Assembly: GCA_964535655.1 (NCBI GenBank)
Contig: CAZHTP010000004.1
Span: forward strand, 139,108-203,107
Reading direction: 5' to 3'
Source: an uncultured Gammaproteobacteria bacterium
Lineage (GTDB): Bacteria; Patescibacteriota; Microgenomatia; JALYQM01
Length of the DNA stretch: 64,000 nucleotides
The position numbers were made by a program, and so were the translations under genes. Under the pieces are notes generated by a model. That model was not told where the DNA came from. It ran no database searches and saw only the letters and a list, made by a program, of their open reading frames with translations. This document shows positions 8,252 to 63,981 of the stretch, one piece after another. Every line of letters begins with the position of its first letter. Position 1 is the first letter of the stretch.

Positions 8252-8280
8252 ATATTTTACCTAAAAATTATACTAAATAG

Positions 8281-8718: not shown

Positions 8719-8892
8719 TATTTATTCTCTCTATTCAATTATTTTACGTTAGTTTTTGTTTTTTTAATAGACTTATTTCCCACTTGTATTTTGGGTATTA
8801 TTTGGGTAATGTAGGTTTATTACATGATAATATAACTCGTCAACTCTTTTATCATTTATTTTATTAAGTGGGGGCGAAGAAAGGCAAAGCGT

Positions 8893-10014: not shown

Positions 10015-10017
10015 CCT

Positions 10018-33901: not shown

Positions 33902-34385
33902 TATGTATTCGTTACAGTATTTAGCGATTGCTGTCATCATAGTTTTATTTGTTGGAGTATTTCTATTTGTTACTCTTAAAAAATCTCCTCGAAAATTCAA
34001 GGCTAAAGGGCCATATTTACTGAGCATGGGAGAAACGCGTTTTTTTAATGTACTCGTCCAAGCGATTAGTAGTACTGAATATGTTTGTCCAAAAGTCAGA
34101 ATTGCGGATTTGGTGGAAGTTGATTTGCCAAAAGATGATACAGAATATTGGTCAAATTTTAATAAAATAAGTCAAAAACATGTGGACTTTGTAATTGTAA
34201 ACAGATTGGATTTTGCGCCAAAATTAATTGTTGAGCTTGATGGTGGATCACATAATAATCCAGATAGATTAGAGAGAGATGAGTTTGTGGACTCAGTGTT
34301 AAAATCAGCGAAGATACCGATTGTGCATATTGCAGTGCAGGGGAATTATTCTGTTGAGCAGTTGAAGAGTGAGTTGAAAATATAG
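33876..34385 (+). CDS. DUF2726-like PD-(D/E)xK-fold protein with N-terminal TM helix
   Basis: TM helix, then FFNVL...HVDFVIVN...KLIVELDGGSH...RDEFVDSVLKSAKIPIVHI, matching the DUF2726 / restriction-endonuclease-like core (D..ExD/K). Confidence 0.6.
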   Translation: MNSWRRKPNMYSLQYLAIAVIIVLFVGVFLFVTLKKSPRKFKAKGPYLLSMGETRFFNVLVQAISSTEYVCPKVRIADLVEVDLPKDDTEYWSNFNKISQKHVDFVIVNRLDFAPKLIVELDGGSHNNPDRLERDEFVDSVLKSAKIPIVHIAVQGNYSVEQLKSELKI

Positions 34386-34419
34386 TTATTGCAATTGTTG
34401 TTTAAAAGTATATATTTGT

Positions 34420-36291
34420 TTGATACTTATGATCCTTTATGAAGGAACGGCAAAGGAATATAGTGAAGCCGTTGATACTAATAAACTAATTGAACAGCTA
34501 GAACTCGCATTTAAACAAAAATTAGGACGAAAACTTCCTCCGAATGAAGTGGGAGCTTATAATAATTCGCTCTCTTTTATGGAACGTGTTATTAGAAGAT
34601 CTGGCGTTTCCGATGATTGTGCTATTCTGATCGAATATATTATCCCCCTTACTTCAAATAGAATTGATTTCCTCATAGCCGGAGAAGATGATTTTGGAAA
34701 TAAGAATTTTGTTATAGTTGAATTAAAGCAGTGGCAAAAAGCAAGTCCAACTGAAAGTGATGCTGTCGTAAGGACTTTCTTAAATGGTGGAGATCGTGAA
34801 ACCACTCATCCTAGTTATCAAGCAAATTCATACAAATTGTTTCTATCGGATTTTAATGAAGAAATTTCAAGTGGAAAGATAAAAGCTTCAGCTTGTGCTT
34901 ATTTACATAACTATCATAAGCATTTTCCAGAGCCTTTGGAAAATTATCCTTATGATGAAATTATCAAAGAAGCACCGATCTACTTTAGTGAGGATCAAGA
35001 AAAATTAGAGAAGTTCATTGCGAAGAATGTAAAATACGGAAAAGGAAAAGAAATCCTCTATGCTATTGAACATGGAGAAATTAAACCTACGAAGAAATTA
35101 ATAGATTATGTCTCAGATTTATTTATAGGGAATAATAAATTTATTTTTCTGGATAATCAAAAAGTAGCTTTTGAAAAGGCTCGTTCAGCTGTCAAAGATT
35201 CTAATAAAAAGACGGTGGTCATTGTTCAGGGCGGTCCTGGAACAGGGAAATCTGTTATCTCTGTAAACTTGTTGGGGCAGTTTCTTAAGGATAAATTAAA
35301 TACTTTATTCGTTGCTCCGAATGCTTCATTCAGAAATGTTCTTATTAAGACATTAGCTCGAGAATTTCCCTCTAATCGTTTGCAGAATTTATTTAAAGGT
35401 TCGAGTAGTTTTGTCGATACAGACCCGAATACATATGATGTATTAATTATTGACGAAGCTCATAGGCTAAAAGACCGTCGTGCTTATATGTACACAGGTA
35501 AGAATCAAGTGGAGGATGTAATAAAGGCGGCTCGAACAACTATTTTTTTCATAGATGATGATCAAGTTATTCGGCCCGAGGATATAGGATCAGTTAAGGA
35601 AATCAATAGAATAGCTCATGAATATGAAGCTGAAGTTTATACAATCGAACTAGAATCTCAATTTCGTTGTGCAGGAGCGGATGGTTATATTAACTGGCTT
35701 AATGATGTCTGGCAGTTGAAAATGACTGCGAATTATGATGGTTGGGAGGAAAAAGATTTCGAGTTTAGAATTTTTGATGATCCTAACGAGATGAGAAAAG
35801 CAATTAAGTCAAAACATGAACAAAATTACGATGCTCGAATTCTTGCCGGTTATGCTTGGTCTTGGACCTCTGGCGAAAAGGGTAATGCAGATGCTCAAAT
35901 TGAAGATGTTCAAATCCCAGAATTTGAATTTAGTATGCCTTGGAATTCTCGGAAAGTAGGAACTACATGGTCCGTAGATCAAGAAGGTATTGATCAAGTG
36001 GGTTGCATTCATACTTCCCAGGGTATTGATTTTGATTATGTGGGGGTAATAGTTGGTAAAGATATAACGTTTAATCAAAATTTACTCGAATTTAGCACTG
36101 AGTATAATGCCTATAAAGATTTTCAAGGTAAGCTGGGTTTGAAAGAGAAGCCCGAAGAACTTAATCTGTTAGTAAGACGCATTTATAAAATATTAATGTC
36201 TAGGCCGAGATATGGTTGTTATGTCTACTTTTGTGATCCGGCATTGAAGGAATATTTTCAGAGAAGATTAACGGGAAGTATCAGAAGATAG
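34420..36291 (+). CDS. DUF2075-like nuclease-helicase: N-terminal PD-(D/E)xK-like domain + SF1-type P-loop ATPase/helicase core
   Basis: N-terminus ILIEY..RIDFLIAGED..FVIVELKQW (E/D/ExK); Walker A VQGGPGTGKSVIS; Walker B/DEAH LIIDEAHRL; C-terminal helicase motif TSQGIDFDYVGVIV. Confidence 0.7.
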   Translation: MILMILYEGTAKEYSEAVDTNKLIEQLELAFKQKLGRKLPPNEVGAYNNSLSFMERVIRRSGVSDDCAILIEYIIPLTSNRIDFLIAGEDDFGNKNFVIVELKQWQKASPTESDAVVRTFLNGGDRETTHPSYQANSYKLFLSDFNEEISSGKIKASACAYLHNYHKHFPEPLENYPYDEIIKEAPIYFSEDQEKLEKFIAKNVKYGKGKEILYAIEHGEIKPTKKLIDYVSDLFIGNNKFIFLDNQKVAFEKARSAVKDSNKKTVVIVQGGPGTGKSVISVNLLGQFLKDKLNTLFVAPNASFRNVLIKTLAREFPSNRLQNLFKGSSSFVDTDPNTYDVLIIDEAHRLKDRRAYMYTGKNQVEDVIKAARTTIFFIDDDQVIRPEDIGSVKEINRIAHEYEAEVYTIELESQFRCAGADGYINWLNDVWQLKMTANYDGWEEKDFEFRIFDDPNEMRKAIKSKHEQNYDARILAGYAWSWTSGEKGNADAQIEDVQIPEFEFSMPWNSRKVGTTWSVDQEGIDQVGCIHTSQGIDFDYVGVIVGKDITFNQNLLEFSTEYNAYKDFQGKLGLKEKPEELNLLVRRIYKILMSRPRYGCYVYFCDPALKEYFQRRLTGSIRR

Positions 36292-37341: not shown

Positions 37342-37626
37342 TTGGATTATGAAATACTAAATATCATTCGCGCTGGGGTAGTTTCAAACCGATTGCGGTT
37401 AGAACATAAAGATATTCTAGTAAATTTGTATCAGGATTTAGCTATTCAGACTTTACCTATTAACTACCTTGAAGTTCTGAATGTTGCACTCATTAAAAAA
37501 CTGAGCATTTATGATGCAAGTTACTTTTGGCTAGCGGATAAAATGGATATACCCTTACTAACCTTGGATGCTGCTTTAAAAAATAACTTCTGTCTTTTTT
37601 CTTTCATTGTGTTATTATCTATTCTT
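37342..37626 (+). pseudogene. PIN-domain (VapC-like) remnant, open in-frame into the downstream decarboxylase ORF
   Basis: LLDYEIL...LSIYDASYFWLADKMDIPLLTLDAALKNNF matches the C-terminal half of PIN (YDASY..., LLTLD). Only about 85 aa; TTG at the ORF start; no canonical ATG. Confidence 0.45.
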
Positions 37627-39189
37627 ATGTTTTACAGTGAATATTTGCGTGAATCGTTGGCTGGTTCGGCCTTTGCAGATGCTCTTTCGTTTGATTCTGA
37701 GGGGGAAATGTGGATGAACGGAATCTGTTTGATGGATTTAGTCCGTCGGTATGGTTCGCCCCTTGATGTTTCGGATACACGGATGTTTTCAAAACGAGGA
37801 AATTGGTGGAAAAAGTTAACTTCTCGTATCGCACAGGATGTAGGATTTTGCGGCGGTTTTGATTATTTCTATGCATCAAAAGCTAACATGTCTTTGGCAC
37901 TTACTAAAACCGCGTATAATAGTGGATGGATGGCTGAAACAAGTTCTTCCCAAGATTTGGAGCATATAAAATGGATGTATTCGCAAGGGGAGGTTGACCG
38001 GTCGTTGCGCATTATTTGTAATGGGTATAAGGTATCTGAATTTGAACAAAATACATTAGAAGAAAAAATTAAGACACAAAATATTACTCTAGCTTTGCCT
38101 CCTTCGGTTGAGAAAGAGATATTATATGCAGATAACATTCTGTTACTGCACTCTTTGGGATTTGATATCACGCCAATTTTTGATACCGACGAATTGCACT
38201 ACTTTAATCATGCACCGCTGCGTCGCGACATGAATGTTGGCTTGCGATTAAAATTTGGTAAAGTTGAGGATGATTATGATTTGTCCCACTATGTATCAAG
38301 GCATGGCATGATGTGGGAGGAATTATTGGACAATGCGGCTGTTATTGAACGAAGCGAGCACCTTGTATTGACTATGCTTCATGCGATGGTTGGGGCTGCT
38401 GAAACAATTGATGTAGATACATTTGTACAATCGTTACTTTTTGCTACTGAAAAGTATTTTCATTTAAAAAAGTTTTATCCTTCTCTTCGTTATTTAAATA
38501 TTGGAGGTGGAATTCCGCCAATTTATAGTGGATATGACTATGATACTTTTTTGCGCAAGTTCCTGAGCGGAGTTGTTGCGTTAAGTAAAAAATATTGTAT
38601 GGAAATGCCGTGCTTGGTATATGAGCTTGGTAGTTTTCTTGCCGATGATTGCGGTATGCGGATTTATAAAATATTGCAAAAAAAAGTAAACCATGTAAGC
38701 GAATCGGGGAACCCAGAGGTATGGTGTACTGTTGATGGCGGTTTGATGTCTGCTTTACCGGATATATTTATTATGAATAAGTCTTTTCAAGTCGTAGCAC
38801 TGAATAATGGAAACTCGTCTCTGTGCCAAGGGCGGCTTGGGGATTTATCCTGTGATAGTGATGGTCGTTATCCTCGCAAAGGAATGTCTCCTGACACGTT
38901 GGTGCTTCCCTTAACGGCTTTGGAAACATTTATTGGCATACTTCCTGTTGGTGCGTATCAAAAGATGCTTTCGGGGGTTGGGGGTGCACATCATTGTGGT
39001 GTGCTTGAAGCAGGTCAAGTGATTATTGAGGAAGATGCTTATGGTGTTTTGTGTGGATTTATTCCCTCGCAAACAAGTGTTGAGTACCAGCGATTACTGG
39101 GCTATTCCAAAGACGCTCATTTACCTAAGCACTCTGCCGAAATTAAGGGTCTAGTAAATTCGCTTGATAGTTCTATAATTTCTTCATGA
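37627..39189 (+). CDS. PLP-dependent Orn/DAP/Arg decarboxylase (fold III), biosynthetic arginine decarboxylase (SpeA)-like
   Basis: PLP-lysine region FYASKAN; GWMAETSSSQDLE (compare GLEAGSKPEL of SpeA); the ORF is open from 37342, and the ATG at 37627 is the preferred start. Confidence 0.6.
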   Translation: MFYSEYLRESLAGSAFADALSFDSEGEMWMNGICLMDLVRRYGSPLDVSDTRMFSKRGNWWKKLTSRIAQDVGFCGGFDYFYASKANMSLALTKTAYNSGWMAETSSSQDLEHIKWMYSQGEVDRSLRIICNGYKVSEFEQNTLEEKIKTQNITLALPPSVEKEILYADNILLLHSLGFDITPIFDTDELHYFNHAPLRRDMNVGLRLKFGKVEDDYDLSHYVSRHGMMWEELLDNAAVIERSEHLVLTMLHAMVGAAETIDVDTFVQSLLFATEKYFHLKKFYPSLRYLNIGGGIPPIYSGYDYDTFLRKFLSGVVALSKKYCMEMPCLVYELGSFLADDCGMRIYKILQKKVNHVSESGNPEVWCTVDGGLMSALPDIFIMNKSFQVVALNNGNSSLCQGRLGDLSCDSDGRYPRKGMSPDTLVLPLTALETFIGILPVGAYQKMLSGVGGAHHCGVLEAGQVIIEEDAYGVLCGFIPSQTSVEYQRLLGYSKDAHLPKHSAEIKGLVNSLDSSIISS

Positions 39190-45376: not shown

Positions 45377-46882
45377 ATGACTAAGCCAGTAAAAGAACTA
45401 TTTGTTGTTTCACTCGTGACGCTATTGGGGTTGAGTGTTTTCGGGGTAGTGGGATCTAAGACTTTAAATGTGGCTTTTCTTCAAACATATCCTCGGGTAG
45501 AAGCCGCTTGCGATACCAGTTTTTTTACTGTAAATGCGCCCAAAGGATGCATTACGGCTAATGCGGTAATGTACAGTGATGACTCGAGGTTTGTATTCTT
45601 TAACCCTGCTCCCCCATACGTTAATTTGCCGTATATACAATTAGGAAATGTCGGCGTAAAAGATGCGCCAAACTTTGATTGGGGACTTGCTTTACAGAAG
45701 TCGGCAACGGTATATATCTTTACACGGCATATTCCAGGGATTGGAGTTCCTTCATGGATTTCTCAAACGTATACGCGTAAGACAACAGATGATCTCTCTA
45801 CTATTAATCAATATTTATTACGAAAAAATGATCAAGGCTTGATAGGTTTATACGATATTTGGTCAAAGAATTATGTGGCAGGAACTAATGTTCAGTTCCA
45901 TGCGGCAGGAGATGCACAGAATCCAGCGTATTCGATGTACCTTGTGGCTTTGGCTGGGATTGGTTCTTCTGTGAGCTCAACTCCTTCTCCAACTTCGACA
46001 CCATTGCCTCCTTCAACGCCGATAGCCGGGGGTAGTTGTTCTGGCGCGTCTGTTTCGCCTGGACAATCTTTGAGCGCAGCAATTAGTAGCTTAGGCTCAG
46101 GGCAAACTCTGTGTGTCCATGGGGGAGTTTATGGAAAACTCAGTGTTACGATTCCCTCGGGGGCAACGGTTAAAGCGTATCCTGGAGAAAAGCCTTGGGT
46201 AGAAGGTATCTCTTCTATTACTGGATCTAGTGGATCGATATTGGATGGAATTAACTTTAGATGGGGAAGCGATTCTAATGGTCCACATATGGTAAGTATG
46301 AAAGGGAGCGGATGGACATATATTAATGGCGAAGTAGGTCCATCCCATGGATATGCAAATATGTTGATATCTGGTGGTGCGTCTAATTGGCGAATAGCAA
46401 ACTGTTATATGCATGATAATACTGATGGTGGGCACACCGCAGTTCAGGATCATTTAATTTATGCGAGCGAAACAAGTAATGGCATTATTGAACGATGTAT
46501 ATTTGCCAATAGCCCGCGTGGTCGGGGCGTAAAAATGGGACCGCCAAGTGGTTCGGGTGGACCTAAAAATATTACTGTTCGTTATAATACGTTCTTTAAT
46601 AACCTCGGTCCATCCAATATGCAAGTGTCTGGGGATACGTCTGGTGTTAAAATGTACCGAAATATCCTGGTTAAATCTGGTGCTTCGACTAACATTACTG
46701 ATGCAACAAATGGAGGATCGAGTAATAGTGCGTATGAGAATGTAGGTGATGGTTCAGGAGGGGTTGCTGCTTCTTCTTTGAACAATGGTGGAGGGCCAAA
46801 TATTAAACTGGATCCACAACTTGGATCAGATTTCCGTCCAGGTAATCCAGCTGCAGCTGCGTACGGAAGATATGCTCCGTAA
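45377..46882 (+). CDS. secreted protein: shared N-terminal module + Pro/Ser/Thr linker + right-handed parallel beta-helix (pectate-lyase-like) domain
   Basis: Signal anchor; N-module paralogous to 31306 and 60101; C-terminal Gly/Asn-rich repeats (NxxDGGH, GxxNG). Confidence 0.5.
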   Translation: MTKPVKELFVVSLVTLLGLSVFGVVGSKTLNVAFLQTYPRVEAACDTSFFTVNAPKGCITANAVMYSDDSRFVFFNPAPPYVNLPYIQLGNVGVKDAPNFDWGLALQKSATVYIFTRHIPGIGVPSWISQTYTRKTTDDLSTINQYLLRKNDQGLIGLYDIWSKNYVAGTNVQFHAAGDAQNPAYSMYLVALAGIGSSVSSTPSPTSTPLPPSTPIAGGSCSGASVSPGQSLSAAISSLGSGQTLCVHGGVYGKLSVTIPSGATVKAYPGEKPWVEGISSITGSSGSILDGINFRWGSDSNGPHMVSMKGSGWTYINGEVGPSHGYANMLISGGASNWRIANCYMHDNTDGGHTAVQDHLIYASETSNGIIERCIFANSPRGRGVKMGPPSGSGGPKNITVRYNTFFNNLGPSNMQVSGDTSGVKMYRNILVKSGASTNITDATNGGSSNSAYENVGDGSGGVAASSLNNGGGPNIKLDPQLGSDFRPGNPAAAAYGRYAP

Positions 46883-46988: not shown

Positions 46989-49334
46989 TTATAAATTGGA
47001 CCTTCGCTGCATATCCACTTCGATGGTTTGGCGTTCTTGACCAAACTTAAGACGAGATAATTCCTTAATCATCTCTGCAAGTTCTGGGCTCATCAAGGCT
47101 TTTTCGACAGAAATGTCTTTTGTAGTATCAAGAGAAAACGCTGGTGTTGGTTCACCATTTACTAATGTTTTTACGTAGGCGTTAAAGCGTTCAACATTGA
47201 TTAAATCCTGCTCGTTGAATGTTGGTTGGAATTCATGCTGTAGGTAATTAGCATCGGTTACGCCTACACGGAAAGAAACAATTGTACCAACGTTACCAAA
47301 GATCGCATTTTTAATATTTTCTTCCATTTGGCCAATAAATTGGTTGGCTACCACGAGGTTAAGTTTGAATTTACGAGCTTCGGAAAGAATGTCTGCAAAA
47401 GTAGACGTCGCAAAGTTTTGAAACTCGTCAACATATAGATAAAAGTCTGGAAAGGAAATATTTTTAGCGATGGCATCAGAGCGAGACATAGCCGCCACTA
47501 GAATGCGGGGTACGAGTACGAGTCCTAAAAAGTTAGAGTTTTCTTCACCAATTTCACCCTTGGCTAGATTAACCAGTAATATTTTCTTTTCATCCATGAT
47601 TTTGCGGAAGTCGAAAGCGGATTTATTTTGTCCAATAATGTTACGCATCATTTTGTTGGTTACGAATCGACCGAACTTAGAAACGATATAGTCGAGCACT
47701 TCGGATTTGTGGAAGTCTGACGTTTGGGCGATTTGGTCCGTCCAATAGCGGCGAACCATTGGATCTTCAACGTGTGGCAGAAGTTCCTGCATATATTTAG
47801 AATCGGTAAGTACGCGAACAACTTCAATAAATGTATTCCCCGGAACCGACATAACGGTAAGCATCGCGTTACGAATGGCGTGCTCGAATCGGGGACCGAT
47901 GATACCTGTTTGGTGCGGGTCGTATAGTTTGTACATCAATCCAATAATGGAGTTAACCATGAAATGTTTCTGCTCTTCGGTTTCGGCTTCAAGTAAATTA
48001 AGACCAAGAGGGAAATCCAAATCCGAAGGATTGAAGTAAATGACGTCTTCAGCTCGTTCGGGTGGAATGAGTTGCAAGATATCTGTTATAGCGGTTCCGT
48101 GAGGATCCATAAAACAAAGGCCTTTGCCATCGTTAATATCCTGCATTGCCATCTGTTTTAAAAATTCAGATTTACCCGTGCCGGTTTTACCAATAATATA
48201 CATGTGTCGACGACGATCGTCGTCGCCGATAAAAATTGGACGAGTAGTACCACGAAAGACGCTTTGTCCCAAATACAATCCTTTGGGGGGGATGTTGGCT
48301 GGTGCTGCGGCCCGTTTTGCATTGAGCCAGGTAATGTATGGTGTTTCGATCGCTTTATTTGGGAAGTGATAAATGGATGCTAACTCTTCCGAATTTAAAA
48401 TGCTTGATCGAACAAAGATTGGCGTATACCGATAAATGAAATTGGTAAGAAATACTTTTTTTGACCAGATCTTTTTTGTCTTGAACCCATTATATGCACC
48501 ATTAAACTGTTCAAACCCTGCTCGAATGTTGTTCAAATGTGTTTTTGCCATTTCCTTAGTTTCTGCACAAACAACAATGCGGATAGCTGTTTCAAATCCT
48601 GGCTTTGCAACTTTTTGTTCAACGGCTTCAAGTTGTTTGGCGTCGGCTGGCTTGGGTTTATCTCCAGATGATTCTTGAGAACGCTGACCCTTTACAAAAC
48701 CATACCCTTTTTTTGACCAGGCGCCACCTGCAGGCGAGATAATCATTTGAATTACCGCACCTTCGCCCTCGCGCATTTTAGCCATGGCAGATGTTAATGC
48801 AGAGAGTGGATCGGTAGCTAAATCTTTGTATGTTTTTATGGGTTGATAATTGGCTGATTTGAGTCGTAAGGAGACGAATTGTACTTTCCCAGATTTAGTG
48901 AAGATGTTGTATTCATTTACGATCTTAATTTCGGCGCCTGAATATGCGGCATGAATTTGCTTTTCAACTAAATCCTGAAGATCTTCCGGGACGTTAATAT
49001 AGAATTTGATAGATTCTGGCTGGGCAACAATTTCAAAACTTATTGACGGTTGATGCTTGAGCATGGGAATGAGTGCGGAACGATAAATTCCAGTGAATGA
49101 GCTAAACATTTGTTCGGCAGCATCAATTTTAACTTCGTTGTCGCGCGGAATCGTAATCTGTAACAGTCGTGACTTTAACGATTCTTCTTCCCGCTCTTTA
49201 TATACAGAGAATCGTATGATTAACGCTCCTGCTATGAGAAGTAGTCCACCTACAACTAAAATGGTTAGAATAATTGTAAGGACAATTAAACCTATAAACG
49301 GTAAGGAACTCGATAAATCTGATGTAAGGAACAT
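46989..49334 (-). CDS. membrane-anchored P-loop NTPase of the TraG/TraD/VirD4 (type IV coupling protein)-like family
   Basis: N-terminal TM helices; Walker A IIGKTGTGKSEF; Walker B LYVDEFQNF; LVVANQ; a TraG-D_C-like C-terminal region; 781 aa. Confidence 0.5.
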   Translation of the reverse strand: MFLTSDLSSSLPFIGLIVLTIILTILVVGGLLLIAGALIIRFSVYKEREEESLKSRLLQITIPRDNEVKIDAAEQMFSSFTGIYRSALIPMLKHQPSISFEIVAQPESIKFYINVPEDLQDLVEKQIHAAYSGAEIKIVNEYNIFTKSGKVQFVSLRLKSANYQPIKTYKDLATDPLSALTSAMAKMREGEGAVIQMIISPAGGAWSKKGYGFVKGQRSQESSGDKPKPADAKQLEAVEQKVAKPGFETAIRIVVCAETKEMAKTHLNNIRAGFEQFNGAYNGFKTKKIWSKKVFLTNFIYRYTPIFVRSSILNSEELASIYHFPNKAIETPYITWLNAKRAAAPANIPPKGLYLGQSVFRGTTRPIFIGDDDRRRHMYIIGKTGTGKSEFLKQMAMQDINDGKGLCFMDPHGTAITDILQLIPPERAEDVIYFNPSDLDFPLGLNLLEAETEEQKHFMVNSIIGLMYKLYDPHQTGIIGPRFEHAIRNAMLTVMSVPGNTFIEVVRVLTDSKYMQELLPHVEDPMVRRYWTDQIAQTSDFHKSEVLDYIVSKFGRFVTNKMMRNIIGQNKSAFDFRKIMDEKKILLVNLAKGEIGEENSNFLGLVLVPRILVAAMSRSDAIAKNISFPDFYLYVDEFQNFATSTFADILSEARKFKLNLVVANQFIGQMEENIKNAIFGNVGTIVSFRVGVTDANYLQHEFQPTFNEQDLINVERFNAYVKTLVNGEPTPAFSLDTTKDISVEKALMSPELAEMIKELSRLKFGQERQTIEVDMQRRSNL

Positions 49335-57443: not shown

Positions 57444-57884
57444 ATGAAAAAAACTATTATGAGTGTGTTGTTTGCTTCGACAATTTTATTACTTTCCGCT
57501 TGTACTGCACAAAGTACACCTTCACAGTCGCCTAGTGCACAAGCTCCTACAGGAACAATTAGCCCTGATCAAATTGATCAAGGTGAAGACTCTTCTCCCA
57601 GCGCCGCTATGACTGAACGCGAAATAAAGATTGAAGCTTTTAGTTATGGGTTTACTCCTAAGACAATTGAAGTTGCTAAGGGTGAAAAAGTGAAATTTGT
57701 TATCACTAATAAGGGTGGATTTCATGATTTTACTATCAAAGATTTTGATGTTTCAAAAGGATTATCAACGAATGCTCCAACCGAAGTAGCATTTACTTCT
57801 GATAAAACTGGATCTTTCGAATTTATATGTTCAGTCGGTAATCATGCTGCTCAAGGTATGAAAGGTACTATCGTGGTGAAATAA
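57444..57884 (+). CDS. cupredoxin (type-1 blue copper) lipoprotein
   Basis: Lipobox LLSAC; copper ligands H (GGFHDF) and C-x4-H-x4-M (CSVGNHAAQGM). Confidence 0.65.
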   Translation: MKKTIMSVLFASTILLLSACTAQSTPSQSPSAQAPTGTISPDQIDQGEDSSPSAAMTEREIKIEAFSYGFTPKTIEVAKGEKVKFVITNKGGFHDFTIKDFDVSKGLSTNAPTEVAFTSDKTGSFEFICSVGNHAAQGMKGTIVVK

Positions 57885-58469: not shown

Positions 58470-59324
58470 ATGAATAATTTTCCGATAATTGGTGCACATG
58501 TTTCAACCGCGGGTGGCCTTGATAAAGGTATTGATCGTGCTGTAGAGCTTGGTGCTGACGCTATGCAAATTTTCGTTTCTGCACCGCAATCATATCGATT
58601 TACCGCGCCCGATGAAGCGATGGTTAAACTTTTTAATGAAAAATATGAACGATCAGCATTACATGGACTTTTTTTCCACTCTATTTATTTAATGAATTTA
58701 GCCTCTCAGGAAGGTGCGAAAAATCATCTTGCGAAGCAATCACTGGTGGATTATTTAAATACCGCTGCTTTATTACATGCTGACGGAGTAGTTACTCATA
58801 TTGGTTCATCGACCGGGACAACGTATGAGCAAGCAATAGAAACTATTCAAAAAAGTATTAACTGGGTGTTAAGTAAAACGCCTGCTGAGACGACATTAAT
58901 ACTTGAGGTTACTGCTGGGGCAGGGAATACTATTGGTTCTCAATACGAACACTTACGCGACATTCGCCAAGGTATTAACGATGTTCATCGGGTAAAAACC
59001 TGTTGGGATACACAGCATACCTTTGCATCGGGGTATGATATTCATACAGATTTAGATGGGGTATTAAAAAAATACGATGAACTAGTGGGGATTGATACCC
59101 TTAAAGTAATTCATTGCAATGATTCGAAAACCGAATTTAATTCACATAAGGATCGACACGAAAATATTGGTAAGGGCCTTATTGGTGATGAAGTATTTCG
59201 GCATTTGTTGCACGAAGAGCGACTTAAAAAACTTCCTTTTGTGCTTGAAGTTCCTGGGATGGATGAGAAAAGTGGACCAGACAAAGAAAACATTGACCAC
59301 TTACGTGAGCTTGGAAAGGAGTAG
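58470..59324 (+). CDS. nfo: endonuclease IV (AP endonuclease family 2)
   Basis: TIM-barrel metal-ligand pattern (HxxY..., CWDTQH, HCNDS); 284 aa. Confidence 0.85.
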   Translation: MNNFPIIGAHVSTAGGLDKGIDRAVELGADAMQIFVSAPQSYRFTAPDEAMVKLFNEKYERSALHGLFFHSIYLMNLASQEGAKNHLAKQSLVDYLNTAALLHADGVVTHIGSSTGTTYEQAIETIQKSINWVLSKTPAETTLILEVTAGAGNTIGSQYEHLRDIRQGINDVHRVKTCWDTQHTFASGYDIHTDLDGVLKKYDELVGIDTLKVIHCNDSKTEFNSHKDRHENIGKGLIGDEVFRHLLHEERLKKLPFVLEVPGMDEKSGPDKENIDHLRELGKE

Positions 59325-59544
59325 CTATGGAGGATGGATCAGAAATTTCTAAGGTACTTTCCACTTTCCCCGTGTTCGCTCTATCGTAGGGAACTACTAG
59401 CCCAGAAATGGCTGCTCAAGTTAAAGTGTTGTTCCCCGAGTCTGAGATGACGCCGATATACGGTACAAGGAGAAACGTACCTTTAACATCGATTCGCATA
59501 CCTATGTCATCGTATAAAAAGCCTTAAGTCATTGTGCCATTAGA

Positions 59545-60099
59545 TTAAAAAATAAAGTGAAGAAGGTCGTGAAAAGAGGCAGAACTAAAGATATCAAATA
59601 TTTCGGTAAAGTTTACAAGATTTGGAATTAGTAGTGGTTTTGAAATAATATCACTAATTGCGTAACTGCCAGAGACATTCCGGATAAAGAAGAACATCAG
59701 TAGTACGGCATAGAAAAAATACGCTGTGGCAAAATAGAATAGTTTACGTTGTTTCTTTTTATATATCTTTTTATTTAAATAATAGGCCGTTGGAATAGGA
59801 AGTAAGGGGATTGCTGCAAAGAAAAGCATTAGGACTAGAACAATAGGGTTATAGAGTATTGGTATTGATTCAAGTATGCTTACATAGCCGCGTAGTTTAA
59901 AATAAAGATGTGATAGCGCAGAAGTTAATAAGAATGAATATACTGCGATGACAAAAAAATGAGTTAGATATTTTTTATCTGGTCTTTTTTCGTAAAATAA
60001 GTAAGCAGTTACAATGAGCGATTGAGGAATTATATAGAAAAATGGGATTACGATTCCAGCATGATATATCCCTAAAATAATGTAGCCGACAATACGCAT
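59545..60099 (-). CDS. hypothetical polytopic membrane protein (last gene of the 61096->59545 operon)
   Basis: 4-5 TM helices; abuts the stop of ORF 60101..61096. Confidence 0.35.
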   Translation of the reverse strand: MRIVGYIILGIYHAGIVIPFFYIIPQSLIVTAYLFYEKRPDKKYLTHFFVIAVYSFLLTSALSHLYFKLRGYVSILESIPILYNPIVLVLMLFFAAIPLLPIPTAYYLNKKIYKKKQRKLFYFATAYFFYAVLLMFFFIRNVSGSYAISDIISKPLLIPNLVNFTEIFDIFSSASFHDLLHFIF

Positions 60100-60100
60100 A

Positions 60101-61096
60101 TTAGAACCCTGGAACTTGCAGTGTTTTTAATTTATTCATGGCGCTTGATTTAGTGATGTGCACTTTGTCTCCGTGACCGGATACACCCATGGTTTTTGCC
60201 CCTTTGTTGAAAACTTCAGTCATATCTTTACCGCATGCCCATGTCAAATCATCGTCGCCACCTGGATGTTGCTTTACGACTTTAGTTCCAATAGTTACCG
60301 AATAGTAATCGGATAAATTATATAGATGCCATCCGTCGGTTGCATGATGATAAATAGTCCAGCAGTCAGTAGGTGGATGCACATGTTGCTGGGCAATAGC
60401 TACAAGATTAGCAGGGGGTGTGCTTCCACTTGGGCCAGGAGTAGCTGATGTTTTTGGTGTCGTTGTGGGGCTTCCAACAGCTCCAGTGGGAACTAATGCT
60501 ACAACATACATTGAATAGGCAGGATGTTGTGCGTCAGATGCTCCTGATAAGGTAACTGTTCCTGCAGGGACTGTCCTAGTGAAAATGTCGTATAAACCGA
60601 TTAATCCTTGGTCATTTTTTCTCTTCATAAATTGAGTAATTTGAGATAAGTCGTCGTTTGTCTGGCGCGTGTAATTACTGGTTATCCATGTCGGCGCACT
60701 AAATCCGGGAATATGTCGCGGCATAATATATATGTTGGCTGCAGTGTTGAGCGTTATTGACCATGACAATGAAGCACTATCTTTAATATCTGAATTTGAT
60801 GTTTGTACAAAGGCAGCATTATTTACTGCTGTGGACGGTTGAAAAAAGAAAAATCTGGAATCTGTTGAATAGATCTTGGTGTTATCTAAAAGACAACCTT
60901 TTGTAAATGTTAAGCCACTCGGGTTGTTAATAGTGAAAAACGATGAATTGCAGGCAGCTTGGGCCGCTGATTTATCTATTTGATTAAGTGATACATTTTG
61001 ATTACGTACTACGTTGATAGCACTGTAAAATAATAATGTAACCAGTACTGTAACAATTATTATGGCTAAATTCTGTTTTAACAATTTTGTTTGCAT
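60101..61096 (-). CDS. membrane-anchored protein: shared N-terminal module + Pro/Thr linker + cytochrome-b5-like heme-binding domain
   Basis: Signal anchor; N-module paralogous to 31306 and 45377; C-terminal DCW...LYNLSDY...HPGG...CGKDMTEVF...SGHG fits the cyt-b5 heme-ligand pattern. Confidence 0.55.
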   Translation of the reverse strand: MQTKLLKQNLAIIIVTVLVTLLFYSAINVVRNQNVSLNQIDKSAAQAACNSSFFTINNPSGLTFTKGCLLDNTKIYSTDSRFFFFQPSTAVNNAAFVQTSNSDIKDSASLSWSITLNTAANIYIMPRHIPGFSAPTWITSNYTRQTNDDLSQITQFMKRKNDQGLIGLYDIFTRTVPAGTVTLSGASDAQHPAYSMYVVALVPTGAVGSPTTTPKTSATPGPSGSTPPANLVAIAQQHVHPPTDCWTIYHHATDGWHLYNLSDYYSVTIGTKVVKQHPGGDDDLTWACGKDMTEVFNKGAKTMGVSGHGDKVHITKSSAMNKLKTLQVPGF

Positions 61097-61264
61097 ATCT
61101 TATTTACTATACTATTATTAAACTAATTGTATGAAAATTTCAAAGGTTATTACAACTACCTTAGTGGTAATTTTTGCTCTTGTCTTACTTGCACTCACCC
61201 TTGGCATTATTTATTTGGCTGCGAGTCGGTTGTGGCCGCTGTTTCAATAGACTATTATTACTCT

Positions 61265-62554
61265 ATGTATAAAGCATTGGGATATACGATACTTGTATTG
61301 TGTTGTGCAAATACGATTGCCTTTTGGTTATTAGGAAAAGAGGACTTGTCGACTATTATTTCGCAACCATTACTTGCGACCAGCCAGGCACTTTCGCTAC
61401 TGGGTTTAATTTTAACCGCAATTGCGCTATTATTTTCCACTCGTGTAGCAATTCTTGAAGATATCTTTGGTGGACTTGACTCTGATTATTTTTTGCATCA
61501 TATTCTGGGTGGAGTTGCGTTCTTATGTCTTATCAATCATCCACTTTTTCTGGTTGTACACTATCTTCCGTTTTATAAACTGGCACTTTTCTATGTAATT
61601 CCAGGAAGCGATTTTTCGTATAATCTTGGGCTTGCTGCGCTTTACACTATGATATTTTCTTTCGTGTTTATCGGATTTGTAAAAATATCATATAGTGCAT
61701 GGCTGTGGTCGCATCGATTACTCGTTGTGAGTTTTCTGCTTGGCGCGCTCCATACAATGTATGTGACAAGCGATGTCTCACATAATATTTTATTGCGTGT
61801 ATGGACGTATGTTTTTATTGTAATTGGAATGTTAAGCTCGATATATATCCTTTTCCTGTATAAAAAATTTGGTCCACGTTATAAATATATTGTTGAACTT
61901 GTGACACGAACGAGTGATGTTTTTAGTATTTACTTACGGCCTGTTGACCGTGCCATGCAGTTTATACCGGGGCAATTTATTTATGTGCGTTTTGATAACC
62001 AAAAACTTGGTAATGAACTCCATCCTTTTTCGTTCTCATCCGCACCTTGGGAAAACCAGATCCGGGTAAGTGCAAAAATCCTGGGAGATTATACAAAGAA
62101 GTTATCCGAGCTACAGGTTGGGGATACAGCTCATATATTTGGGCCGTATGGCCGGTTTGGTACATCCTTTATGGAAGGTGAACGGGATTTGCTATTTATT
62201 GGCGGAGGTATTGGAATTACGCCTTTTTTGAGTATGCTACGCTTTGAATCTGTATACCCTAAAAATAGAAAAATTTATGTTATTTATTCATATAAAAACC
62301 ATAGCGAGGCAGTTTTTTATGACGAAATTATGACATTGATGTCGTATAATAATACAGTCCAGTTTATTCCATGGGCATCGCACGAACGAGGTAGATTGAC
62401 TGGAGATCAGGTCTGGAAATCTGTAGGAAGCCTTCAAGGATTAACCATTTTGATGTGTGGACCAAGTGGTATGATGATGAATTTGCAAAAGCAATTTATT
62501 CGTAATGGAGTTGATGAGCAGAATATTATTTTTGAAGATTTTAATGTTTTGTAA
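61265..62554 (+). CDS. ferric-reductase/NOX-like transmembrane flavocytochrome (bis-heme TM domain + FAD-binding + NAD(P)H-binding)
   Basis: His pairs 13 residues apart in two helices (HHILGGVAFLCLINH; HRLLVVSFLLGALH); HPFS FAD motif; GGGIGITPF NAD motif; CGP near the C-terminus. The track ORF starts at 61127; a later ATG at 61265 is more plausible. Confidence 0.65.
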   Translation: MYKALGYTILVLCCANTIAFWLLGKEDLSTIISQPLLATSQALSLLGLILTAIALLFSTRVAILEDIFGGLDSDYFLHHILGGVAFLCLINHPLFLVVHYLPFYKLALFYVIPGSDFSYNLGLAALYTMIFSFVFIGFVKISYSAWLWSHRLLVVSFLLGALHTMYVTSDVSHNILLRVWTYVFIVIGMLSSIYILFLYKKFGPRYKYIVELVTRTSDVFSIYLRPVDRAMQFIPGQFIYVRFDNQKLGNELHPFSFSSAPWENQIRVSAKILGDYTKKLSELQVGDTAHIFGPYGRFGTSFMEGERDLLFIGGGIGITPFLSMLRFESVYPKNRKIYVIYSYKNHSEAVFYDEIMTLMSYNNTVQFIPWASHERGRLTGDQVWKSVGSLQGLTILMCGPSGMMMNLQKQFIRNGVDEQNIIFEDFNVL

Positions 62555-62556
62555 TT

Positions 62557-63201
62557 ATGAAATCGTACCTTCTTATTCTCATTCGTATTGGAATGATTAA
62601 TTTTTTGTGTATATTGCTTGTGATGGTGTATATATCACGTCGTCCTGTTGTAGCTAATTCGACAAAAAAGCCAATAGTAGCCAATGGTCCTGGTGCGACA
62701 AGAGTTGTTACTTTGCCGGAAACGACCCCATCACCGAGTGCCACTGATGTTCCCTATGTGATTGAAACAGCAACTCCAACTGCATCTCCGTCACCAACAC
62801 CTACTCGGACTCCTGTTCCTACCACTTCTGCTTCGGCAACAGCTCGAGCTTCTTCTACTAGTGCTGCTACCGCATCGCCGACACCTCAACCCACTCAGCA
62901 GCCAACAGCTCAGCCGACGCAAGCACCTACGGCTTCGCCTACTCCACAACCTACCGCTCCTCCTAACCCCTTACTGGTAAAAGTAGCACCGCATAATACG
63001 GAAACTGATTGTTGGATGGTAATTGATTCGCATATTTATAATGTTTCCGACTATATGAAGTTACACCCAGGCGGTAAGGATCCTCTGGTCATTTATTGTG
63101 GTAAAGATGGGACAACTGGTTATCACACTAAAGATAAAAACCCACCTGTTGATCATACTCCCACCTCTAATTCGATGCTTGAATTATTCCTTGTGGAGTG
63201 A
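62557..63201 (+). CDS. membrane-anchored Pro/Thr/Ala-rich protein with C-terminal cytochrome-b5-like heme-binding domain
   Basis: TM helix; 70-aa PT linker; DCWMVIDSHIYNVSDY..HPGG..CGKDGTTGYH. Starts 3 nt after the preceding stop. Confidence 0.55.
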   Translation: MKSYLLILIRIGMINFLCILLVMVYISRRPVVANSTKKPIVANGPGATRVVTLPETTPSPSATDVPYVIETATPTASPSPTPTRTPVPTTSASATARASSTSAATASPTPQPTQQPTAQPTQAPTASPTPQPTAPPNPLLVKVAPHNTETDCWMVIDSHIYNVSDYMKLHPGGKDPLVIYCGKDGTTGYHTKDKNPPVDHTPTSNSMLELFLVE

Positions 63202-63981
63202 TGGTTTTCTTTTCTTAACTATTATAAGTAGAGAAATTCCTGCCAGTATAAGTAGTAGCGCTACATATTGCGGGATTCGTAGTAATCCAATTTTACTGTC
63301 TGAATCAGGGTCAAGCTTAACTAATTCAACGATAGATCGTATAATTCCGTAGTTAATTAAATACAAAGAGGAGATTACTCCTGTTTTGGGATGATATTTA
63401 TTGTCTATAAATCTTAATACTATGAAATTAAGTAAAGAGAATAGTGATTCATACAAGAACACCGGATGAAAGGTTGAAAATTGTTTTACTGAATTTAATC
63501 TGTTTTGTGGGTCTATATGTACAGCCCAAGGAAGGGAGGTCGGTTTTCCATATAATTCCTGATTAACATAGTTTCCCCAGCGACCAATTGACTGTCCAAG
63601 GGCAAGTAAGGGAGCCAAAAAATCTGTAATTTGTAGAAAAGGGCGTTTGGATTTTTTACTGAGGTAATAGAGAATTGCGATTCCTCCTAGTATTGCTCCC
63701 AGAATTCCTAACCCGCCATTCCAAACGGCAAAAATTAGTAACGGATTTTTGGCGTAATAACTCCAATTTGTACTAACGTGGTAGAGTCGAGCAAAAACTA
63801 ATGAAAGAGGAATTACGGTAAAAAAATAATTGTCTACTTCATTTGAGGAAATTTTTTTTTCTTTTGCAATTTTTAGTGCAAGGATATACGATGTGGTTAT
63901 CGCGAGCGCAATGATAATTCCATAAAAATGTATCGTGAGCGGTCCAATATGGACCGCATTTAGTGGTGGAGAGGGTATCAT
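63184..63981 (-). CDS. lgt: prolipoprotein diacylglyceryl transferase
   Basis: N-terminus ...IGPLTIHFYGIIIALAI; Lgt signature GRWGNYVNQELYG; polytopic. Confidence 0.9.
   Translation of the reverse strand: MIPSPPLNAVHIGPLTIHFYGIIIALAITTSYILALKIAKEKKISSNEVDNYFFTVIPLSLVFARLYHVSTNWSYYAKNPLLIFAVWNGGLGILGAILGGIAILYYLSKKSKRPFLQITDFLAPLLALGQSIGRWGNYVNQELYGKPTSLPWAVHIDPQNRLNSVKQFSTFHPVFLYESLFSLLNFIVLRFIDNKYHPKTGVISSLYLINYGIIRSIVELVKLDPDSDSKIGLLRIPQYVALLLILAGISLLIIVKKRKPSLHKE

Follow-up and report, generated by a model that had tools for sequence, protein, structure and literature searches.

The window analysed here (the whole stretch of 64,000 nucleotides) belongs to a CPR bacterium with a tiny genome and carries a locus organised as two divergent transcription units. 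The forward unit encodes a 429 aa SpNOX-type flavocytochrome of the FRD-FAD-NAD architecture (61265..62554, + strand), followed by a 214 aa membrane-anchored cytochrome b5 (62557..63201, +). The reverse unit encodes a membrane-anchored 331 aa protein with a divergent b5 domain (60101..61096, −) and, 1 nt downstream of its gene on the same strand, a 184 aa polytopic membrane protein (59545..60099, −). An earlier note on this DNA had reported these four open reading frames, and all four lie where it placed them. Between the two units is an AT-rich intergenic region of 168 bp (61097..61264, no strand), which presumably houses their promoters; promoter-like hexamers are not enriched in it (19 as against 14.7 ± 4.4 expected in shuffles).

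The reductase was characterised by means of Pfam profiles, phmmer searches, an AF2 model and Foldseek comparisons, residue 1 being the ATG codon at 61265. Translation from an upstream TTG (61127) would yield a protein of 475 aa, the ATG being the likelier start because orthologs are 429–435 aa long. The protein comprises a transmembrane domain (aa 1–202, 61265–61870, +) and a dehydrogenase domain (aa 203–429, 61871–62551, +), and scores above the curated Pfam cut-offs for Ferric_reduct (33.9 bits), FAD_binding_8 (37.1 bits) and NAD_binding_6 (27.0 bits), three of the four families for which the earlier note had suggested a profile search, as well as for NAD_binding_1 (37.0 bits). Its best PDB match is SpNOX (8qt6; phmmer, full length, E=3.7e-32), and its AF2 model (pLDDT 92.1) superimposes on the same structure with a TM-score of 0.83/0.89 and an rmsd of 3.0 (Foldseek). 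The transmembrane histidines are H78/H79, H92, H150 and H163, and conservation together with the SpNOX alignment places the heme-ligand codons at 61496..61753 (+). Going by the phmmer alignment and the Dubach et al. preprint, the predicted inner-heme ligands H78 (61496–61498, +) and H150 (61712–61714, +) correspond to SpNOX H69/H129, and the predicted outer-heme ligands H92 (61538–61540, +) and H163 (61751–61753, +) to SpNOX H83/H142. A spacing of 13 residues had been given for both pairs; this is true of the TM5 pair (H150/H163), whereas the TM3 pair (H78/H92) is spaced by 14.

Across 34 homologs, three of the four ligands (H78, H92 and H163) never vary, and the fourth, H150, shows conservation of at least 90%. 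The motifs HPFS, GGIGITPF and CGP (aa 398–400, 62456–62464, +) are likewise kept in this set. Within the FAD-binding HPFS (aa 253–256, 62021..62032, +), recognised by motif match and conservation, P254 is invariant and H253 and F255 are at least 90% conserved; the NAD(P)H-binding GIGITP (aa 315–320, 62207..62224, +) matches a regular expression of the Hajjar et al. 2017 motif and falls in invariant columns. Taken together, the Pfam scores, the SpNOX match and the three motifs bear out the ferric-reductase-domain architecture that had been read from the letters.

SpNOX (PDB 8qt6, 8qq7), the NADPH oxidase of Streptococcus pneumoniae and a member of the NOX-like family of prokaryotes reported by Hajjar et al. 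2017, is the closest relative of the locus reductase with a solved structure. The two have in common a full-length fold with six TM helices, two b hemes, the TM3/TM5 His spacings of 14 and 13, a C-terminal FAD/NAD(P)H domain and short outer loops (about 11, 16 and 8 residues in our model). However, they are only about 24–29% identical, and the FAD motif of the locus reductase reads HPFSF, with F at its fifth position where the motif of Hajjar et al. 2017 has L/I/M/V. According to the SpNOX literature, its outer heme is exposed and it reduces cytochrome c directly under anaerobic conditions. The streptococcal loci that we retrieved have no adjacent b5 gene, whereas the FRD gene of our locus is translationally coupled to an exported b5.

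The 214 aa protein, identified by Pfam, PDB matches and ligand columns, consists of a signal anchor (aa 4–26, 62566–62634, +), a linker of 109 aa that is 71% P/T/S/A (aa 27–135, 62635–62961, +) and a b5 domain (aa 136–214, 62962–63198, +) with C152, H170 (of HPGG), C181 and H200. It scores 53.8 bits against Pfam Cyt-b5, and its PDB alignments (4b8n, E=9e-12; 1cxy, E=1.5e-10) fall at the C-terminus. The 331 aa protein, characterised with Pfam, a custom b5 HMM and alignment, displays a signal anchor (aa 10–30, 61007–61069, −), a beta-rich N-module of ~170 aa with invariant C49/C68 (aa ~45–205, 60482–60964, −), a P/T linker (aa 206–232, 60401–60481, −) and a divergent b5 domain (aa 233–331, 60104–60400, −) with C245, H277 (of HPGG), C288 and H308/H313. 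Its Pfam Cyt-b5 score is 23.9 bits against a cut-off of 23.7, the family-specific b5 HMM matches it with E=2e-17, and its second His sits two columns off the family position. Both proteins contain the DCW...HPGG...CGKD...H pattern that had been taken to signify cytochrome b5, an assignment with which these scores agree. Signal-anchor helices are predicted in both, and the proposed layout of anchor and Pro/Thr linker is found in each, although the beta-rich module lying between the two in the 331 aa protein had been overlooked.

Among 31 FRD-linked b5 domains, the HPGG His and the Cys pair are present in all 31 and the second His in 28. The Cys pair is missing from eukaryotic b5, as represented by rat b5. 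It recurs at the same positions in Ectothiorhodospira vacuolata cytochrome b558 (1cxy), a soluble periplasmic bacterial cytochrome b5 which also shares the b5 fold signature and the HPG(G) His; an insertion precedes the second His, with a His spacing of 28 residues in 1cxy, 30 in the locus b5 and 24 in rat b5. The two cysteines of b558 reportedly form a disulfide, and we know of no electron donor for this protein. In contrast to b558, the locus b5 hangs from the membrane on a P/T-rich linker of ~110 aa, and its gene is coupled to that of a reductase. Proteobacterial orthologs have a cleavable Sec signal peptide directly N-terminal of the domain. The charges around the anchor of the 214 aa protein (one positive on the N side, three on the C side) are ambiguous and slightly favour C-in; nevertheless, its b5 domain is probably outside, on account of the homology, the Cys pair and the linker. 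Judging from sequence, the b5 domains at the locus look to be of the exported bacterial type and appear heme-competent.

The remaining components are lineage-specific. The AF2 model of the 331 aa protein has a pLDDT of 57, the N-module core alone being moderately confident; this module is common to an alginate-lyase protein and another protein in the window, and to a metallophosphoesterase elsewhere. The 184 aa protein has 4 predicted TM helices, in keeping with its description as a small polytopic membrane protein, but its partnership with the FRD is unsupported: it matches no Pfam or NCBIfam family above threshold, has no relatives among 1.84 billion representatives, and is an orphan with a sole ortholog in one related locus (L001). 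The copper lipoprotein noted at 57444..57884 is indeed a cupredoxin (Cupredoxin_1, 54.3 bits; lipobox LSAC; ligand-like H94/C129/H134/M139), but the link that had been drawn between it and the module gains no support: cupredoxin, 184 aa protein and N-module accompany the FRD in one close relative only and are missing from 84 other loci, and module membership is not supported for any of the three.

In contrast, the FRD→b5 pair is conserved and translationally coupled, beyond chance. We surveyed the flanks of 86 related loci (896 kb in total), with 74 genome loci evaluable for adjacency. A b5 gene lies directly adjacent to the FRD on the same strand in 20/74 of these, drawn from CPR, DPANN and Proteobacteria, and no b5-domain match in the 896 kb is more than about 3 kb away from the FRD gene. 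At our locus 2 nt separate the FRD stop from the start of the 214 aa b5 gene, and in relatives the two genes are at most 5 nt apart or overlap by up to 4 nt. The nearest relatives (L002, L004 and L007) also encode a response regulator and a histidine kinase. Other lineages show tandem double-b5 proteins, or a b5 domain tipping ~820-aa anchored proteins with PKD/Ig repeats; these fit a relay extending away from the membrane. In the CPR loci, the conserved module contains no gene for an electron acceptor.

A cluster of this kind is already on record: Tamarit et al. (bioRxiv 10.1101/2021.11.17.468889) described a CPR cluster of cytb5MY, pFre, cytb5-like proteins (CBLA, CBLB) and a two-component system, without assigned function. 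Both that cluster and our locus reside in CPR hosts and feature membrane proteins with cytochrome b5 domains flanking a PF01794 reductase. However, our locus has no two-component system adjoining the FRD and b5 genes and no Tyr-ligated cytb5MY, is split into two divergent units, has one b5 fused to a lineage-specific surface module and includes an extra orphan membrane protein. A CPR-specific pairing, as in the preprint, is contradicted by the FRD-b5 loci of DPANN and Proteobacteria. Since the host is a CPR bacterium and the cluster was already described in CPR, the earlier note overstated the matter in calling such a system unexpected in this organism. What is new relative to the preprint is the extension of the pair to DPANN archaea and Proteobacteria, its occurrence in an operon with Mtr-type genes (see below), and the recognition of the reductase as a NOX homolog whose distal heme is uncapped, going by our model; the preprint did not connect pFre with NOX, FAD or an outside location.

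Some of these distant relatives lead to the MtrCAB/PioAB/MtoAB conduits. In a gammaproteobacterium of the Porticoccaceae (L067), FRD, b5, a decaheme MtrA-like cytochrome (10 CXXCH) and an MtrB/PioB porin form one operon, in which the FRD, b5 and cytochrome genes overlap by 4 nt at each junction and the porin gene follows 3 nt later. The gene order in another locus (L079) is decaheme-MtrB-FRD, and in Geobacteraceae and Rhizobium multiheme cytochromes c adjoin the FRD. He et al. 2017 (PMC5566968) reported 2xHX13H FRD-like inner-membrane proteins in the porin-cytochrome clusters PCC3/PCC4. The Mtr linkage is seen in two proteobacterial loci only, with distant FRDs about 30% identical to ours, and our window has neither a porin nor a c-type cytochrome, CXXCH being absent from every ORF of at least 60 aa. 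Moreover, in known Mtr systems quinol is the electron source and CymA-type proteins are the entry point, rather than NAD(P)H and a NOX-like protein.

Against this background, we propose, with a probability of roughly 0.65, that the locus encodes a short electron-export chain. The reductase would be embedded in the cytoplasmic membrane, its dehydrogenase domain, which holds the FAD and NAD(P)H sites, facing the cytoplasm. Hydride from NAD(P)H would pass to the FAD, and single electrons from there to the inner heme b (H78/H150) and then the outer heme b (H92/H163). As the latter is predicted to have no long-loop cap, a protein should be able to dock there, and the electrons may then be taken up by the heme domains of the two b5 proteins, which would be anchored via their N-terminal helices and kept extracellular on flexible Pro/Thr-rich tethers. 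The 331 aa protein would add a beta-rich surface module of the kind that the host uses on secreted enzymes. Reduced b5 might finally hand electrons to an acceptor beyond the cell, for which O2, Fe(III)/Mn(IV), Cu(II), quinone-like compounds and a host-cell surface component are candidates. A path from NAD(P)H via FAD and two hemes to tethered b5 proteins, as the earlier note had sketched, gains support from the fold, the ligands, the export signals, the gene order and the MtrA/MtrB operon; from these we infer cofactor loading, direct FRD-to-b5 transfer, the direction of flow and the physiological role. ROS handling, another use that the earlier note had suggested, may also occur but gains no support of its own. 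Besides the ambiguous anchor charges, the offset second His and borderline Pfam score of the 331 aa protein, the lack of an encoded acceptor in the CPR module and the restriction of the Mtr linkage to two loci with distant FRDs, the following count against the export reading: (i) 54/74 evaluable FRD loci are without an adjacent b5; (ii) to our knowledge, CPR bacteria are generally thought incapable of heme synthesis, which poses a problem of cofactor supply; (iii) export of electrons from NAD(P)H, being electrogenic, would run down the membrane potential rather than build it.

Several alternatives draw on the same evidence. It is rather unlikely that the locus encodes an assimilatory metal reductase that reduces extracellular Fe(III) chelates or Cu(II) for uptake like yeast FRE: the superfamily does include eukaryotic FRE (Zhang et al. 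2013), a copper protein is nearby in the genome, and the two-component regulator adjoining in the nearest clades fits nutrient-responsive induction, but no iron or copper transporter occurs in the loci with annotated or Pfam-scanned neighbours, and conservation of the module does not extend to the cupredoxin. This alternative overlaps with electron export and differs from it solely in the purpose of the reduction.

A genuine NADPH oxidase, in which the outer heme reduces O2 to superoxide/H2O2 for signalling, competition or O2 scavenging, with the b5 proteins as accessories (e.g., regulators or scavengers of electrons or ROS), we regard as unlikely. SpNOX, the closest solved relative, does consume O2 and make superoxide in vitro (Hajjar et al. 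2017), but structural studies of SpNOX revealed no canonical site for O2 binding and question whether O2 is the physiological acceptor. Further, O2 reduction alone leaves the coupled, conserved b5 partner and the MtrAB fusion unexplained. The frequent provenance of the CPR and DPANN hosts of the pair from groundwater or anoxic settings also counts against it.

Quite improbable is the supply of reductant to an extracytoplasmic repair or biosynthetic enzyme by the b5, on the model of MsrQ and MsrP. MsrPQ (E. coli MsrQ/YedZ and MsrP, plus Fre) is the sole prokaryotic FRD system of known role, and in it too the exposed outer heme of a di-heme FRD-superfamily protein, on which the partner docks, feeds a dedicated extracytoplasmic partner; some unlinked FRD loci also adjoin dioxygenase-like, cytochrome b561 or other small redox or enzyme proteins. 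However, MsrQ lacks a fused dehydrogenase domain and has a molybdoenzyme for a partner in place of a cytochrome. There is no MsrP-like gene at our locus, a scan of window proteins turned up neither an MsrP nor a molybdoenzyme domain, and no candidate enzyme is conserved beside FRD-b5 in the CPR loci.

Heme handling, with the b5-like domains capturing and releasing scavenged heme and the reductase reducing heme iron to control binding, is very improbable. In its favour, CPR bacteria probably depend on heme import, and Tamarit et al. (bioRxiv 10.1101/2021.11.17.468889) speculated on such a role for the Tyr-ligated cytb5MY proteins; but both b5 domains at the locus are of the His/His (HPGG) type known from the electron carriers b5 and b558, as opposed to the Tyr-ligated MAPR type, and the Mtr linkage indicates electron transfer. 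Finally, cytoplasmic b5 domains reduced by the dehydrogenase domain as in eukaryotic NADH-cytochrome b5 reductase/b5, the TM hemes being irrelevant, might accord with the charges around the 214 aa protein's anchor and a distant relationship of that domain to b5 reductases, but are scarcely credible given the cleavable signal peptides of orthologs, the invariant Cys pair shared with periplasmic b558, the long P/T-rich linkers, the N-module common to alginate lyase and, in L067, a b5 partner placed between FRD and a periplasmic decaheme cytochrome.

To return to electron export, the NOX identity of the reductase, the wider distribution of its pairing with b5 and the Mtr linkage speak for extracellular electron transfer powered by NAD(P)H. 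For a CPR bacterium that lacks a respiratory chain, this would amount to re-oxidising NAD(P)H through the disposal of electrons outside the cell, and not to conserving energy.

The four ORFs that an earlier note on this DNA had delineated are all present exactly where it placed them: a reductase (61265-62554, + strand, 429 aa; FRD, a label that we also apply to its homologs), a 214-aa cytochrome b5-like protein (62557-63201, +), a 331-aa protein with a second b5-like domain (60101-61096, -) and a 184-aa membrane protein (59545-60099, -). The FRD matches four Pfam families, each above its curated cut-off (Ferric_reduct, 33.9 bits; FAD_binding_8, 37.1; NAD_binding_1, 37.0; NAD_binding_6, 27.0), and, numbered from the ATG at 61265, displays the motifs HPFS (253-256), GIGITP (315-320) and CGP (398-400). 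Since its orthologs span 429-435 aa, translation more likely starts at 61265. In the public gene call (P0001) the reductase begins at an upstream TTG and is 475 aa long, and the 46-residue extension thus added (61127-61264) is probably a gene-caller artefact that is not translated.

An AlphaFold (AF2) model of the FRD, computed from a 34-sequence alignment (pLDDT 92.1, pTM 0.85), contains six transmembrane helices (2-23, 35-57, 71-100, 117-138, 143-166 and 175-202), with which a hydropathy scan is concordant. The closest solved structure is that of the Streptococcus pneumoniae NADPH oxidase SpNOX (8qt6; E=3.7e-32, aligned over the whole length); the model superimposes on it with a TM-score of 0.83/0.89 and an rmsd of 3.0 Angstrom, and on human NOX2 with a TM-score of about 0.70-0.73. 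The candidate heme ligands are H78/H92 on TM3 and H150/H163 on TM5, the counterparts of H69/H83 and H129/H142 in SpNOX; the alignment of 34 homologs shows no variation at H78, H92 and H163 and at least 90% conservation at H150. The spacing of 13 that the earlier note gave for both histidine pairs holds for TM5 alone: the TM3 pair is spaced by 14, a slip attributable to the HH doublet at 78-79, and both spacings are identical to those of SpNOX. The outer loops of the model are short (about 11, 16 and 8 residues), and therefore the distal heme is predicted to be uncapped, as in SpNOX. When set against the sequence criteria of Hajjar et al. 2017 for prokaryotic NOX-like (SpNOX-type) enzymes, the GIGITP at 315-320 agrees with the NAD(P)H motif, while the FAD motif, H[PSA]F[TS][LIMV], is represented by its HPFS core with F in position five, which the strict pattern does not match. 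This HPFSF form is common to 8 of the 34 family members, the FAD_binding_8 score (37.1 bits) lies above the threshold of 22, and the modeled dehydrogenase fold matches that of SpNOX; we read HPFSF as a conservative variant of the FAD motif.

The gene for the 214-aa protein starts 2 nt past the FRD stop codon. Its product begins with a hydrophobic anchor, continues with a linker of 109 residues (71% P/T/S/A) and ends in a Cyt-b5 domain; the 331-aa protein combines an anchor, a beta-rich module of about 170 residues with an invariant Cys pair (henceforth the N-module), a short P/T linker and a divergent b5 domain. Pfam Cyt-b5 (PF00173) detects the former with 53.8 bits and the latter with 23.9, a borderline score given the threshold of 23.7; with an HMM trained on FRD-linked b5 domains the E-values are 1.9e-27 and 2.2e-17, respectively. 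The structures closest to the b5 domain of the 214-aa protein, with an alignment reaching its C-terminus, are 4b8n and 1cxy, the latter being the periplasmic cytochrome b558 of Ectothiorhodospira vacuolata. Across 31 non-identical FRD-linked b5 domains from the window and related loci, the His of the HPGG motif is present in all and the second His in 28; both cysteines (DCW and xCG) are likewise found in 31/31 and also in 1cxy, and in microsomal b5 of rat these two positions are occupied by Thr and Ala. H170 and H200 of the 214-aa protein align with the axial ligands of rat b5 and 1cxy. The 331-aa protein has H277 in register, but its second His (H313 or H308) lies at least 2 columns off, so that the heme binding predicted for this protein is less secure. 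The two cysteines of b558 are reportedly disulfide-bonded, and b558 is also said to carry an insertion ahead of the sixth ligand, which would fit the distance between the two His, 28 residues in 1cxy and 30 in the 214-aa protein as against 24 in rat b5; our literature search returned nothing usable on the b558 disulfide, nor a review of bacterial periplasmic b5 proteins. The last 18 nt of the 214-aa b5 gene (63184-63201) are shared with the 3' end of the convergent lgt (63184-63981), which scores 224 bits on Pfam LGT. Between the two genes there is no terminator-like site, and promoter and terminator scans of 59300-63400 gave no enrichment over shuffles.

The side of the membrane on which the b5 domains sit decides the mechanism. 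While the charge bias around the 214-aa protein's own anchor is ambiguous, four lines of evidence point outside. First, the proteobacterial b5 orthologs bear a textbook Sec signal peptide directly ahead of the b5 domain (e.g., MKKAAFAAFVAFWSSIATLLAINALA). Second, there is the conserved Cys pair. Third, the linkers of the b5 proteins are long and P/T-rich. Fourth, the N-module of the 331-aa protein (60482-60964, -), placed behind a signal anchor and ahead of a linker, recurs in the same arrangement in two further proteins of the window: an alginate-lyase protein (31306-32988, -) and a 501-aa protein with an unassigned 300-aa region (45377-46882, +). With only 8 homologs among 5.8 billion proteins, and database fusions to alginate lyase and metallophosphoesterase, it resembles a lineage-restricted cassette for surface display. 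Its AF2 model is poor (pLDDT 57), and the one weak match in a Foldseek search was a GH2 accessory beta-sandwich (E=1e-4), the rest being CBM-like noise; a carbohydrate-binding-like fold is thus a hint and not a result.

Metagenomes contain hundreds of homologs of the reductase. In a relative at 74% identity, on a 1.57-Mb contig, the entire neighborhood is syntenic, and in relatives at 38-43% identity the gene of the divergent-b5 protein precedes FRD and b5, after which come genes for an OmpR-type response regulator and a histidine kinase. When one genome per species is considered, the nearest named genomes belong to WS6/Dojkabacteria, Paceibacterota, Saccharibacteria, Pacearchaeota, Woesearchaeota and Thermoplasmatota, and the streptococcal SpNOX loci stand at about 29% identity. 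We fetched 86 loci around FRD homologs (labeled L001 and onward) and searched all six-frame ORFs of these 896 kb with the b5 HMM: no match is farther than about 3 kb from the reductase gene. Where the flank is sufficient, a b5 gene adjoins the FRD on the same strand in 20 of 74 loci, the genes mostly overlapping. Such pairs occur in CPR groups, Elulimicrobium among them; in DPANN archaea of 27-31% GC (Pacearchaeota, L011 and L013; Woesearchaeota, L033), in one case on a 486-kb contig; and in high-GC Proteobacteria (56-61% GC), namely Marinimicrobium, Porticoccaceae, Cellvibrionaceae and a betaproteobacterium. No adjacent b5 was found in the Streptococcus or Rhodobacterales loci of the set. A rough neighbor-joining tree of the reductases, in which phylogenetic confounding is evident, groups the b5-linked forms into one large clade and a Cellvibrionales clade.

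Other neighbors might have been taken for the defining partners of the reductase. No single common alternative partner emerged at the b5-less loci, where the neighbors are heterogeneous (cytochrome b561, dioxygenase-like and glyoxalase-like proteins, and unknowns). Linkage to a two-component system was also considered as a defining feature, and such genes stand beside the FRD in some relatives; they are, however, confined to L002-L007. No response regulator or kinase adjoins the FRD-b5 locus of the window, where the sole histidine kinase identified among the scanned proteins is encoded at 4521-6803. Another candidate is the type-1-copper-like lipoprotein (57444-57884, +; Cupredoxin_1, 54 bits), with a lipobox LSAC, ligand-like H94/C129/H134/M139 and a weak resemblance to CopI, for which a role as electron acceptor is thermodynamically plausible. 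An HD-domain gene and an AP-endonuclease gene stand between it and the FRD-b5 locus, and L001, a close relative, is alone in having it together with the FRD, 84 other loci lacking it, so that we do not regard it as a demonstrated component. The N-module and the 184-aa membrane protein likewise recur with the FRD in L001 only, and owing to this limited distribution none of the three is counted as part of the conserved machine; the 184-aa protein has no Pfam or NCBIfam family and no relative among 1.84 billion representatives. Farther away in the window, a 623-aa protein (34420-36291, +) combines a Schlafen group-3 helicase domain (310 bits) with a ResIII fragment; GC is lower around its gene (0.351 for 34001-36000), which may be defence-related or mobile. 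The 781-aa product of 46989-49334 (-) and the 615-aa product of 37342-39189 (+) gave no Pfam match at E<=1e-5.

The neighborhoods of FRD homologs in other lineages throw light on where the electrons might go. In a Porticoccaceae MAG (L067, PABE01000135.1), the FRD (5806-7152) is followed within one operon by an exported b5 (7149-7511), a 288-aa decaheme MtrA/PioA-like cytochrome (7508-8374; ten CXXCH; Paired_CXXCH_1, 117 bits) and an MtrB/PioB porin (8378-10411; 280 bits), with 4-nt overlaps between the FRD, b5 and decaheme genes and a 3-nt gap ahead of the porin gene. In a gammaproteobacterial MAG (L079, JAFIFL010000128.1; 2646-7131), a decaheme gene, MtrB (421 bits) and an FRD precede the contig end, the reductase being sister to those of L067 and L080. 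The b5 partners are themselves variable: two saccharibacterial loci (L018, 8503-10983; L021, 3135-5621) place the b5 domain at the C-terminal tip of anchored proteins of about 820 aa with PKD/Ig-like repeats, and, among CPR, tandem double-b5 partners (Pfam Cyt-b5 twice, 134-148 bits) occur at L023 (7236-8333), L037 (7233-8366) and L007 (4671-5582). Judging from these gene contexts, what these lineages share is a NOX-like reductase in the membrane that is predicted to feed extracytoplasmic heme proteins that lead off the membrane. Heme proteins were also observed beside b5-less FRDs: an octaheme cytochrome c (8 CXXCH) upstream in a Geobacteraceae MAG (L024, 3668-5248), proteins of about 1100 aa with 4 CXXCH each directly downstream in two Rhizobium genomes (L061, 7037-10525; L083, 7118-10396), and a prokaryotic cytochrome b561 downstream in a Saprospiraceae MAG (L035, 7152-7709).

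As judged from its sequence, the organism is a CPR bacterium; its LepA has the nearest named relatives, 54-59% identical, in Candidatus Daviesbacteria and further CPR. The closest published counterpart of the locus is the cluster of cytb5MY, pFre (their name for the PF01794 reductase) and cytb5-like genes, often with a two-component system, described in CPR by Tamarit et al. (bioRxiv 10.1101/2021.11.17.468889), who count 185 of 1427 pFre-bearing CPR genomes in which a PF00173 gene lies no more than 10 kb from pFre. They give the function of the cluster as unknown and the pairing as not seen beyond CPR, and mention neither NOX nor FAD nor a location in the periplasm or outside the cell; our literature search found no follow-up. 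Like that cluster, the present locus unites a PF01794 reductase with PF00173 genes within 10 kb in a CPR genome, here with two b5 genes flanking it directly. Unlike it, no two-component system adjoins the locus and no Tyr-ligated, MAPR-like cytb5MY is present, the only two b5 domains detected in the window both being of the HPGG/His type; hence, the locus falls among the PF00173-linked pFre genomes that Tamarit et al. count apart from the cytb5MY set. It is thus a member, with lineage-specific decorations, of a bioinformatically described gene cluster and not a new kind of system. The DPANN pairs, on the other hand, contradict the CPR-specific pairing reported in this only published description.

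Other systems resemble the locus more distantly. MsrQ consists of the FRD domain only and has a molybdopterin protein, MsrP, as its partner, whereas the reductase of the window has a fused dehydrogenase domain, and an MsrP-like domain is absent from the locus genes and the other window proteins scanned; MsrPQ is an analogy only. Unlike Mtr/Pio, the porin-cytochrome electron conduits, the window encodes neither a decaheme MtrA-type cytochrome nor an MtrB/PioB porin, nor is there a CXXCH, the mark of c-type cytochromes, in any of its 260 ORFs; such genes do adjoin the homologous FRD(-b5) in L067 and L079, a resemblance of functional context only. FRD-like di-heme membrane proteins have been noted in the PCC3/PCC4 porin-cytochrome clusters (He et al. 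2017, PMC5566968), and the literature searched yielded neither a NOX-like, NAD(P)H-fed entrance to a porin-cytochrome conduit nor a NOX-like reductase combined with b5 and MtrAB. As for SpNOX itself, the papers on it (including Hajjar et al. 2017) describe its physiological role as unknown, its outer heme as exposed and directly reducing cytochrome c, and O2 as possibly not the physiological acceptor, and they allow for a protein in that role. What our analysis adds to the account of Tamarit et al. is the link to SpNOX, the pair outside CPR and the Mtr operon context, which together lead to a specific and testable hypothesis of extracellular electron transfer.

Briefly, we advance the following mechanism. 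Electrons would pass from NAD(P)H to FAD, then to the inner heme (H78/H150), the outer heme (H92/H163), the tethered b5 and finally an external acceptor. The core of this path, from NAD(P)H via FAD and two hemes to tethered b5 proteins, was already proposed in the earlier note, and the observed architecture, fold, ligands and gene coupling, together with the export signals of the orthologs, support it. We further infer that the cofactors would be loaded, that the FRD would transfer electrons directly to b5 and that the flow would be outward, the direction that makes thermodynamic sense for electrons from NAD(P)H. The likely benefit to a CPR bacterium would be the regeneration of NAD(P)+ via an external electron sink. 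More broadly, with a probability that we put at about one in three, SpNOX-type "NADPH oxidases" might generally be not oxidases but NAD(P)H-driven exporters of electrons to extracytoplasmic cytochromes, with the FRD-b5 pair as a minimal two-component version of extracellular electron transfer in CPR and DPANN, whose b5 domains, on long tethers or Ig-like stalks, would convey electrons through the envelope to minerals, O2 or even the host cell surface.

CPR bacteria and DPANN archaea are regarded as strict fermenters without electron-transport chains. The exported b5, conserved and translationally coupled to the FRD, is a candidate for the natural acceptor in a large branch of the bacterial NOX homologs and offers, for a large clade, a concrete and easily testable answer to the question of what prokaryotic NOX enzymes do; in a single lineage the FRD-b5 pair continues into MtrA/MtrB. 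If the broader reading is true, CPR and DPANN symbionts would gain an external electron sink. If the chain works as proposed, the pathways of extracellular electron transfer would acquire an NAD(P)H-fed, quinone-independent entry, these organisms could dispose of reducing equivalents outside the cell, and the models of their "purely fermentative" metabolism and of their dependence on hosts would change.
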